Shown here: one piece after another, positions 11,685-12,525 of the stretch | Numbering within the stretch: the first letter of the stretch is position 1 | How the letters are laid out: every line of letters starts with the position of its first letter | IMG/VR virus record: IMGVR_UViG_2537561603_000005 | Strand: one strand, 5' to 3' | DNA length: 39,099 bases | Source of the DNA: a virus | Taxonomy: Duplodnaviria > Heunggongvirae > Uroviricota > Caudoviricetes | Program-made: the position numbers and the translations under genes | Notes under the pieces: model-generated | The model's input: the letters and a program-made list of their open reading frames with translations, nothing else | What the model was told of the DNA's origin: nothing | Databases searched by the model: none

Positions 11685-12266
11685 ATGGATAAGCCAACGC
11701 GTGGCCGTGTACGCAAGGTGGACTTGCTCCCCGACAGCATCCGTAAGCCGCTGCTGGAAATGCTGCGTGAAAAACGCCTTACGCAGGTCCAGATCCGCGA
11801 GGAAATCAACCGTCTGATCCGTGAAGCGGGCCTGCCGGAAGAGCAGCAACTTTCACCGGCGGCCATCAGCCGGGAAGCCTCCCGTAATGAGCTGATTGCC
11901 CGCAATCTGCGTGATTTACGCGAGCAGACAAAAGCCATGATGGCCGAACTGGGGGATAAGCCGACCGGTGAAACCACGGCACTGATTCTGGAGATGTCCC
12001 GTGCCCTGATGTACCGCCGTCTGCGTGCCGCCACCGAATCCCTGAACAGCGACAGCGATGTGGATATGCGCCTTATTAAGGACATCCTCCTGTCGGCACA
12101 GCGTGCAGAAAGTGCCGCCGAGCGCAGCATTAAGCGTGAAAAAGAAATCCGGGCCGCATTTGCTGAAGAGATGGCGAATGCGGTCACCGATGAGTTGCGC
12201 GGCGTGGATGGCATGAGCGAGCAGATCGAATTCCGTATCAGGCAGATGCTGCTGGGTAAGGCGTAG
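11685..12266 (+). CDS. terminase small-subunit-like protein (Mu gp27 family)
   Basis: 193 aa, highly charged helical protein just upstream of the large terminase. Confidence 0.6.
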   Translation: MDKPTRGRVRKVDLLPDSIRKPLLEMLREKRLTQVQIREEINRLIREAGLPEEQQLSPAAISREASRNELIARNLRDLREQTKAMMAELGDKPTGETTALILEMSRALMYRRLRAATESLNSDSDVDMRLIKDILLSAQRAESAAERSIKREKEIRAAFAEEMANAVTDELRGVDGMSEQIEFRIRQMLLGKA

Positions 12267-12276
12267 GAGGTGAATC

Positions 12277-12525
12277 ATGGCAACAGATAACCGCTCACTG
12301 ATGAGCAGTGCCCATCAGAAAGCATTCAGTCTTGCAACACAGTTACCTCCTGAAACCATAAAGGTATGTCGTGAGTTGACTGAACTCAGCATTGCCGGGG
12401 AAATATCCCTGGAACAACTGCATTCGCTGCTGGCAGAGGCTGCTACTGATGAGTTGAGCGGCGTGGACGTGATGACTGAAGAGCTTGAGTCCCGAATCAA
12501 AAGCATTCTGACAGGTAAAGCATGA
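12277..12525 (+). CDS. hypothetical protein whose C-terminus duplicates the gp27-like C-terminus
   Basis: C-terminal 28 aa (AATDELSGVDVMTEELESRIKSILTGKA) parallel the end of the preceding protein (AVTDELRGVDGMSEQIEFRIRQMLLGKA); stop overlaps terminase start. Confidence 0.45.
   Translation: MATDNRSLMSSAHQKAFSLATQLPPETIKVCRELTELSIAGEISLEQLHSLLAEAATDELSGVDVMTEELESRIKSILTGKA

Follow-up and report, generated by a model that had tools for sequence, protein, structure and literature searches.

In the phages lambda and P22 the C-terminus of the small terminase subunit (TerS) binds to the N-terminus of the large subunit (TerL), as described for the pairs gpNu1:gpA and gp3:gp2, respectively (PMC9611059). 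In Mu, D108, SfMu and the Yersinia Mu-like phages the stop codon of the gp27 gene, encoding a putative TerS, overlaps the start of the gp28 gene for TerL. The DNA analyzed here (IMG/VR virus record IMGVR_UViG_2537561603_000005, a stretch of 39,099 nucleotides, in the following called the window) is a Mu-like prophage of E. coli with genes of the MuA/MuB type at its left end. It carries an additional open reading frame (ORF) of 82 codons, ORF82, between gp27 and gp28. The locus resembles lambda and P22 in its gene order and in the flexible small-subunit C-terminus encoded right before the large-subunit N-terminus. However, the tails of gp27 and ORF82 have no sequence relationship to the lambda and P22 tails, and the likeness is one of analogy.

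The locus can also be compared with the described mosaicism of phage genomes ('morons', novel joints and coupled late genes). As in these cases, a sharply bounded variable cassette with alternative small ORFs is located between conserved genes, and ATGA or TGATG stop/start chains are preserved. In contrast, the joint described here lies inside two coding sequences and gave an in-frame fusion which reuses fragments of two structural or packaging genes, both from the same type of phage. ORF82 is nothing out of the ordinary, a small ORF produced at a mosaic joint. The mosaic is unusually legible because the fragments of gp27 and of the head protein gp30 can both still be recognized. ORF82 has already been catalogued without a function (phrog_30922, 'hypothetical protein' in RefSeq). 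No description of a chimeric origin of ORF82 or of the related small ORFs was found in the searchable literature, which is an absence of hits and not a proof, and a search for Mu gp27 function or ORF82 gave nothing specific.

ORF82 is chimeric in its ancestry, rare and dispensable. Its protein sequence is only weakly constrained, and its stop codon overlaps the start of gp28. We consider it probable that ORF82 originated as a chimera by mosaic recombination at the gp27/gp28 junction and is kept open mainly for translational coupling to gp28.

Chimeric make-up of ORF82

An earlier interpretation of this DNA made from the letters alone (the sequence-only reading) had noticed that the ORF in front of TerL ends with a segment related to the C-terminus of gp27. 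Both the ORF coordinates and the two peptides quoted there were correct. BLASTP aligned gp27 residues 163–193 (C1, the first copy of the repeated module) with ORF82 residues 52–82 (C2) without gaps, with 18/31 identical and 24/31 positive residues (E 3e-10). The Smith-Waterman score of the two tails was 90 compared to 31.9 ± 5.5 (maximum 63) in 2000 shuffles, corresponding to z = 10.5. Over the 3'-terminal 96 nt the DNA of both genes was 65% identical, with a local score of z = 11. Thus, the pairwise alignment proposed as a check gave scores far above shuffled sequences for protein and DNA. A longer but diverged duplication of gp27 was rejected, since the similarity of ORF82 residues 1–51 and of the DNA 12267–12430 to gp27 was not above chance (p ~0.6).

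The gp27 tails share the consensus motif (D/E)ELRG.DGMSE.LE..I...LLGKA. C2, with the sequence DELSGVDVMTEELESRIKSILTGKA, deviates from this motif by the exchanges R to S, G to V, S to T and L to T. The substituted positions are invariant in ~20 genuine gp27 tails taken from gp27 proteins of 33–100% identity. C2 retains the loop-plus-amphipathic-helix pattern GVD...LE.RI..IL.GKA.

The sequence-only reading had suggested a partial gene duplication as a possible source of the repeat. In a simple local form of such an event the gp27 3' end of this phage would have been duplicated in tandem, possibly together with the gp28 5' end, and the copy would then have diverged. Two direct copies ~260 nt apart agree with such an event. 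Moreover, the single-copy tail of relatives lacking the insert resembles a hybrid of the C1 5' and C2 3' parts, and the 5' region of ORF82 shares weak collinear matches with the 5' end of gp28 (TCACTGATG, equally offset in both, and GCCGGNGAAA). However, the nearest relatives of C2 are gp27 tails of insert-less E. coli Mu-like prophages of the L001 type (compared loci carry L numbers, database proteins P numbers), with 77% identity at the nucleotide and 71% at the amino acid level. The corresponding values for C2 and the adjacent C1 are 65% and 58%. Consequently, C2 is not a copy of its neighbour's tail. The DNA between the copies did not match gp27 or gp28 above chance (p = 0.2–0.6; 0.03–0.04 for the best of several comparisons). 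It is clearly of independent origin, since the N-terminal two-thirds of ORF82 come from a separate, pre-existing family of small ORFs described below. Furthermore, the loci L089 and L013 share the gp27 and the left joint of the window without any second tail. A simple local duplication is already largely refuted, and we regard it as highly improbable. An origin of the N-terminal part of ORF82 from the gp28 5' end, by duplication of the entire gp27-3'/gp28-5' junction in tandem, was also considered. It gave only short collinear matches (protein and DNA local alignments with p = 0.03–0.45) and was dropped because of the clear homology of the N-terminal part to the small-ORF family.

At the fusion joint near position 12418 a possible frame-shifted remnant of gp27 codons 158–161 was detected (GCATTCGCTG compared to GCATTTGCTG), which is followed by a 5-nt gap. 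Across this gap MAFFT lengthened the match between C1 and C2 by ~12 nt in the 5' direction. This extension is marginal (p ~0.03); the allele of L007 matches gp27 10/10. The match and the gap suggest that the gp27-derived piece extends four codons further upstream, in another frame.

The family providing the N-terminal part (P0148–P0151, P0153; L030, L033, L089, L093–L096) is rare and comes from enterobacterial Mu-like prophages, among them those of Salmonella and E. coli. It occupies the same slot between gp27 and gp28 as ORF82, with a Shine-Dalgarno (SD) sequence 6–10 nt after the gp27 stop. Its homologous N-terminal ~48 residues are shared by ORF82. Residues 6–46 of ORF82 aligned without gaps over 40 aa to a Salmonella ORF of 65 aa found in this slot (L033; z = 10.5, 0/5000 shuffles), and the family profile recovered the ORF82-type protein P0003 at E 4.7e-21. 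A search of 1.84 billion representative proteins with this profile (hidden Markov model, no word filters) resulted in 9 matches. Seven of them are proteins of 59–80 aa, and the remaining two, long proteins hit on short stretches, are taken as spurious. The six family members with checked context (6/6) are all located directly after gp27, three of them by direct observation and the others via close relatives. In the window, L089, L093, L094, L095/96 and L030/33 the small ORFs start 8–10 nt after the gp27 stop with their own SD sequence and upstream of gp28; the ORF82 start at 12277 follows the gp27 stop at 12266. ORF82 differs from the unfused family members, which have a length of 59–69 aa and at least three unrelated C-termini. 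ORF82 has 82 aa, and only the ORF82 type ends in a gp27 tail.

Unfused and shortened forms of the insert are preserved at other loci. L089 encodes a gp27 protein identical to that of the window, with a C1-type tail, and has the identical left joint TAGGAGGTGAATCATGGCAACAGA. The first ~34 codons of its 67-aa ORF are near-identical to ORF82 at the DNA level. Beyond these codons the two loci differ: the L089 ORF has another C-terminus, a spacer of 119 nt separates it from gp28, and the gp28 N-terminus is not that of the window. L013 (3093–3122) and L018 possess a mini-ORF of 9 codons (MATDWFSYE) with the SD sequence and the first four codons of ORF82. The mini-ORF overlaps the start of gp28, the N-terminus of which is longer by 5 residues here. 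These two loci look like deletion derivatives of the L089 arrangement. The protein P0011 (80 aa, from a Logan contig of 2153 nt) consists of the first 24 residues of ORF82 and unrelated sequence; it represents either another recombinant joint in the slot or an assembly chimera.

The small-ORF family itself is a distant partial paralog of residues ~31–86 of the MuF-type protein gp30. Mu gp30 was found by tblastn at E 1e-4, phrog_220 was matched at E 2.5e-5 and the alignment reached z = 16. A comparison by hhalign gave 93.9% probability and E 1.6e-7 for the family and Mu gp30, and a weaker relation (34% probability, E 4.4e-4) to the gp30 of the window. The Salmonella ORF (L030/L033 3090–3287) shows 42% identity, ungapped, to residues 32–80 of Mu gp30 (L088 1408–2727) and is closer to this protein than to the gp30 of its own prophages. 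Proteins of the MuF or SPP1 gp7 type such as Mu gp30 contain PF04233 and MuF_C. The family, and through it the N-terminal part of ORF82, aligns to gp30 residues ~31–86 without gaps. In contrast to full MuF proteins they share only a fragment of ~55 residues, located mostly N-terminal to the start of the Pfam domain (residues 58–187 in the gp30 of the window). Neither ORF82 nor its small relatives matched PF04233 (Phage_Mu_F).

ORF82 is part of a hypervariable mosaic cassette formed by the last ~13 gp27 codons, ORF82 itself and the first ~18 gp28 codons (Table 1). Identity to the insert-less relative L001 was 93–98% in the sequences flanking the cassette and 63–85% within it; other fillings were seen in L089, L013/L018, L030/L033, L032, L094 and L095. 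On the left side a sharp mosaic boundary is located inside gp27 at ~12225 (codon ~181). The last ~13 codons read IEFRIRQMLLGKA or LESRIKGILLGKA in gp27 genes that are otherwise 97% identical, and in the window, L013 and L089 the IEFRIRQMLLGKA end is linked to the small-ORF cassette that follows it. On the right side gp28 codons 1–18 are hypervariable with at least five unrelated N-termini among close relatives, and conservation starts at ...KIDL.GEKALLGVDVP. C2 probably arrived together with the variable N-terminus and start region of gp28 which adjoins it.

Distribution of ORF82 and selection on its sequence

At least 80% of the first 25 kb of the window is contained in ~228 of 5,426 complete E. 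coli genomes. ORF82 was found in 25 of the 5,426, always in the gp27/gp28 slot and annotated as a coding sequence by RefSeq in 25/25 cases, and the same prophage type without ORF82 was found in ~205. No ORF82 is present in Mu, D108, SfMu and the Yersinia Mu-like phages, nor in two Mu-like elements integrated into Stx phages. These elements have ~91% identity to the window at this locus, and in them, too, the gp27 stop overlaps the gp28 start. Among 78 IMG/VR loci in which the gp27 homologue is complete (31–100% identity) gp28 begins on the gp27 stop in 55, ORF82 is present in 8 and the rest contain other fillings. The unique part of ORF82 was not detected in plasmids, and in the phage collection nothing beyond gp27 tails was found. 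Since close and distant relatives mostly lack it, ORF82 is dispensable for such phages. The question raised earlier, whether related Mu-like phages carry the extra ORF, has a divided answer: 25 E. coli genomes and 8 IMG/VR loci do, and most relatives including Mu, D108 and SfMu do not.

Unrelated ORFs of 63–68 aa (phrog_1761/5120) occupy the same slot in distant Mu-like phages whose gp27 is 33–38% identical (L070 3076–3398, L074 2093–2299, L075/L078 3082–3288). In L070 a hydrophobic ORF of 43 aa follows, and one of the distant-phage slot ORFs had a weak, non-significant match to the Acb2/Tad1 hairpin domain (E 0.06). Hydrophobic, membrane-like ORFs of 50–55 aa with starts overlapping the gp27 stop were observed in L082 (3052–3219), L083 (3052–3204) and L087 (3052–3219). 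The gp27/gp28 junction of Mu-like phages is an insertion hot-spot used repeatedly, and the small ORFs present there in different lineages are of at least four unrelated kinds.

Selection was assessed from segregating synonymous and nonsynonymous changes across 14 copies at the DNA level, namely the window, 5 E. coli genomes and 8 IMG/VR contigs, with 9 alleles of ORF82. For gp26 32 synonymous and 5 nonsynonymous changes were counted, and for gp27 49 and 1, which indicates strong purifying selection. The tail C1 had 13 and 0. ORF82 exhibited 17 synonymous and 27 nonsynonymous changes, corresponding to a ratio of nonsynonymous to synonymous rates (omega) of ~0.6, which is not significantly below neutral (p = 0.086). 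For C2 the counts were 6 and 6. Codons 1–18 of gp28 are apparently unconstrained (2 and 6), compared to 91 and 27 (omega ~0.11) for codons 19–554. The differences between ORF82 and gp27 (Fisher p = 5e-11), ORF82 and gp28 (p = 1e-5) and C2 and C1 (p = 0.005) were significant. Thus, the protein-level constraint on ORF82 is weak. In 6/14 copies GTG replaces ATG as the start codon. The database variants of ORF82 include one frameshifted form (P0010), two with in-frame deletions (P0003, P0004) and two truncated calls (P0008, P0009); a look-up of the last two, both of 49 aa, gave no record.

These data bear on a function of the tail in packaging. From TerS-TerL binding in lambda and P22 it follows by analogy that a free tail could in principle compete with or mimic TerS. 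ORF82 might then be a small packaging modulator whose gp27-derived tail docks on TerL, either as competitor or regulator of TerS:TerL assembly or as a link between TerL and the partner of the MuF-like N-terminal part. This possibility draws on the retained loop-plus-helix pattern with predicted helicity, on the open frame in 14/14 copies, the annotation in all carrier genomes and the strong SD sequence. It is also favoured by the omega nominally below 1, by the significant constraint on the 65-aa Salmonella relative (omega 0.33, p = 0.003) and by the position of C2 next to the variable gp28 N-terminus with which it probably came. However, the evolution of C2 is much faster than that of the genuine tail, C2 has lost invariant residues, and the omega of the whole ORF82 cannot be distinguished from neutral. 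Codons 1–18 of gp28, by analogy the presumed docking site, are unconstrained. Furthermore, ~90% of the prophages of the same type and all characterized Mu-like phages examined do without ORF82. We therefore consider such a mimic of the TerS tail unlikely, and the alternative or competing adaptor suggested by the sequence-only reading is unsupported. If the tail did bind TerL, it would be a natural minimal TerL-binding peptide for the uncharacterized Mu terminase and an example of a phage-borne packaging modulator.

A broader version of this idea is quite improbable in our view. Here the slot would hold a family of small proteins made of packaging- and head-protein fragments, which act as decoys or modulators of head and packaging assembly, with ORF82 combining a MuF-like module and a TerS tail. 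Such proteins might titrate TerL away from the TerS of a co-resident or superinfecting Mu-like phage or tune the TerS:TerL stoichiometry. They would then represent a phage-encoded device for packaging interference or regulation created by recombination resembling exon shuffling.

Translation signals and coupling to gp28

The GGAGG reported upstream of ORF82 is present at 12266–12270, 6 nt before the ATG. It is part of an SD sequence that overlaps the gp27 stop codon (Table 1). Its predicted pairing with the anti-SD sequence (-11.5 kcal/mol) is level with that of gp27's own site (-11.8 kcal/mol), and ~3% of random window positions reach -8 kcal/mol. The SD sequence is identical in L089, L013 and L005. 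The stop codon TGA of ORF82 (12523–12525) overlaps the ATG of gp28 in a TGATG at 12523–12527, and gp28 has a weak SD sequence of its own (-3.8 kcal/mol). ORF82 and gp28 thus show the stop/start overlap and the weak downstream SD sequence of a coupled gene pair. No promoter-like site or plus-strand terminator was found in the ORF82 region, which lies within the late operon.

A near-neutral substitution pattern, the disrupted database variants and the lack of a Pfam, NCBIfam or PADLOC assignment would fit an ORF82 that is not expressed as a protein at all, an artefact of gene calling within an intergenic insert undergoing decay. Several observations stand against this. The SD sequence is among the strongest sites of the region, at ideal spacing and kept in all copies, and a valid start codon (ATG or GTG) is always present. 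The ORF lies within the late operon without a plus-strand terminator, none of the 14 copies contains a stop or frameshift at a synonymous divergence of ~0.25, and the stop is located exactly on the gp28 start. An artefact is very unlikely, and the objection that the ORF might lack a ribosome binding site was not borne out.

The stop/start chaining is kept in most architectures of the locus, whether gp27 adjoins gp28 directly or a small ORF or the mini-ORF of L013/18 precedes gp28. In the window, L013, L030/L033, L032 and L095 the upstream ORF ends on or across the gp28 start. From the weak SD sequence of gp28 and the ORF82 stop over the gp28 ATG we infer that ribosomes finishing ORF82 may re-initiate on gp28. 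Taken together with the strong SD sequence of ORF82 and the preserved chaining, this suggests that the main selected property of ORF82 is translation through to the gp28 start. Most likely ORF82 stays open because it ends on the start codon of TerL. The strength of the gp28 SD sequence was tried as a marker of coupling. It fits the window, L001, L013, L033 and L089. The loci L094 and L095 do not agree with it, and it was kept as weak support only.

Several points weigh against coupling as the main reason for the open frame. The 14 copies free of stops and frameshifts have synonymous divergences of ~0.2–0.3 (up to ~0.29), although only ~1.2 stops are expected by chance across them. The omega of ORF82 is nominally below 1, so that some protein-level selection is possible, and that of the Salmonella relative is significantly below 1. 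In L089 and L094 the small ORF and gp28 are uncoupled (119 and 375 nt apart), and gp28 SD strength does not cleanly track coupling (-2.9 kcal/mol in L094, -6.5 kcal/mol in L095). Moreover, ~20 nt would suffice for the gp28 initiation region, yet at least 96 nt of gp27 tail are retained. A donor with a near-identical C2 was not found (best 77%). Finally, efficient translation of ORF82, re-initiation at gp28 and hence coupling are predictions from the sequence.

The preferred reading, mosaic recombination followed by translational coupling, would involve the following events. The chimeric ORF82 would have arisen at the hypervariable junction of gp27 (TerS-like) and gp28 (TerL) by illegitimate or mosaic recombination. 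The 5' two-thirds with the strong SD sequence would stem from a small accessory ORF already located behind gp27 in this lineage. The 3' third would be the last ~31, perhaps ~36, gp27 codons of a related insert-less prophage, probably joined in along with the adjoining gp28 start region. Efficient translation of ORF82 would then be followed by termination and re-initiation at the gp28 ATG. Selection would keep the frame open and ending at the gp28 start, and would not act on the peptide sequence. The gp27-like tail would be mainly a recombination scar bearing the translation-initiation region of gp28.

ORF82 is mainly an evolutionary case study, in which boundary recombination that splices fragments of two structural or packaging genes into a new ORF can be followed base by base. 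It also suggests that the overlap with the start of the next gene can hold an ORF open under little constraint on the peptide.

Family assignments, structure models and neighbouring genes

ORF82 matched phrog_30922 over its full length (E 6.9e-52, residues 2–82 on profile positions 2–82 of 82). PHROGs gave only this family of unknown function for ORF82 and its small relatives, and no family or function match was obtained in Pfam, NCBIfam or PADLOC. ORF82 did not match PF11985 at E <= 0.1, whereas gp27 matched this family (Phage_Mu_Gp27, gathering score 28 bits) with 116 bits and E 3e-33 over positions 1–173 of 173 as well as phrog_426 'terminase small subunit' (E 9e-55). Homology to the gp27 tail comprises the 31 C-terminal residues of ORF82, and the ORF82 stop overlaps the gp28 start as does that of gp27 in most Mu-like phages. 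In contrast to Mu gp27/DUF3486 proteins ORF82 has no N-terminal region resembling a helix-turn-helix and no long helical core, and its tail is degenerate and evolves near-neutrally.

The AlphaFold2 model of ORF82 contains four helices (3–21, 25–39, 45–60, 68–79; pLDDT 70.7) and had no match in BFVD at E <= 0.001. For gp27 helices were predicted at 17–29, 34–47, 58–89, 95–121, 128–171 and 179–189; with a pLDDT of 55 this model was used for secondary structure only and is too poor for a fold search. In it C1 begins with the last part of a long helix, which is followed by a loop (RGVDGMS) and a short helix at the C-terminus. The arrangement of helix end, loop and short helix was thus predicted for the module in both gp27 and ORF82, at low confidence for gp27. 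Sequence searches of the PDB with gp27 and gp30 gave no match.

The order of genes on the plus strand is DUF2730 protein, gp26-like protein, gp27, ORF82, gp28, Mu-type portal protein and MuF-type gp30. Their coordinates and those of the segments discussed above are given in Table 1.

Table 1. Positions of genes and sequence segments at the gp27/gp28 locus of the window
Feature	Position	Strand	Remarks
gp26-like protein	11392–11682	+	winged-helix protein
gp27	11685–12266	+	Mu Gp27/DUF3486, putative small terminase, 193 aa; PF11985, phrog_426
Antisense ORF	11594–12214	-	206 aa, Arg/Ser-rich, through gp27
C1	12171–12266	+	gp27 codons 163–193 and stop, first copy of the repeated C-terminal module
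Variable cassette	12215–12580	+	hypervariable mosaic cassette at the gp27/gp28 junction
ORF82 SD sequence	12265–12271	+	AGGAGGT, overlaps gp27 stop TAG (12264–12266)
ORF82	12277–12525	+	82 aa; phrog_30922; RefSeq 'hypothetical protein', e.g. WP_000179787.1
ORF82 N-terminal part	12277–12417	+	codons 1–47, member of the junction small-ORF family; distant relation to MuF/gp30 ~31–86
Fusion joint in ORF82	12418–12429	+	from MAFFT and global alignments
C2	12430–12525	+	ORF82 codons 52–82 and stop, second, degenerate copy of the module
gp28	12525–14189	+	large terminase; PGAP-equivalent start ATG 12525, as annotated in RefSeq relatives
gp28 codons 1–18	12525–12578	+	hypervariable
gp30	15762–17087	+	MuF head protein
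gp30 residues 31–86	15852–16019	+	segment distantly homologous to the junction small-ORF family

A second in-frame ATG for gp28 is located at 12522. The protein matched the TerL profile phrog_2 (E 5e-43) and was recognized by PHROG TerL profiles only. It had no Pfam-A or NCBIfam match at the thresholds used, and its RefSeq label is 'hypothetical protein'. For the gp28 homologue of L095/L096 a precomputed weak match to Terminase_6N is on record.

The antisense ORF through gp27 also occurs in L001 and is probably not a gene but a by-product of the gp27 codon composition. In one IMG/VR contig (L039 2575–3080) gp27 is split into ORFs of 82 and 85 aa, and a Logan assembly contains a gp26-gp27 fusion of 291 aa (P0029). 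Both are apparent frameshift variants and possibly sequencing or assembly errors.

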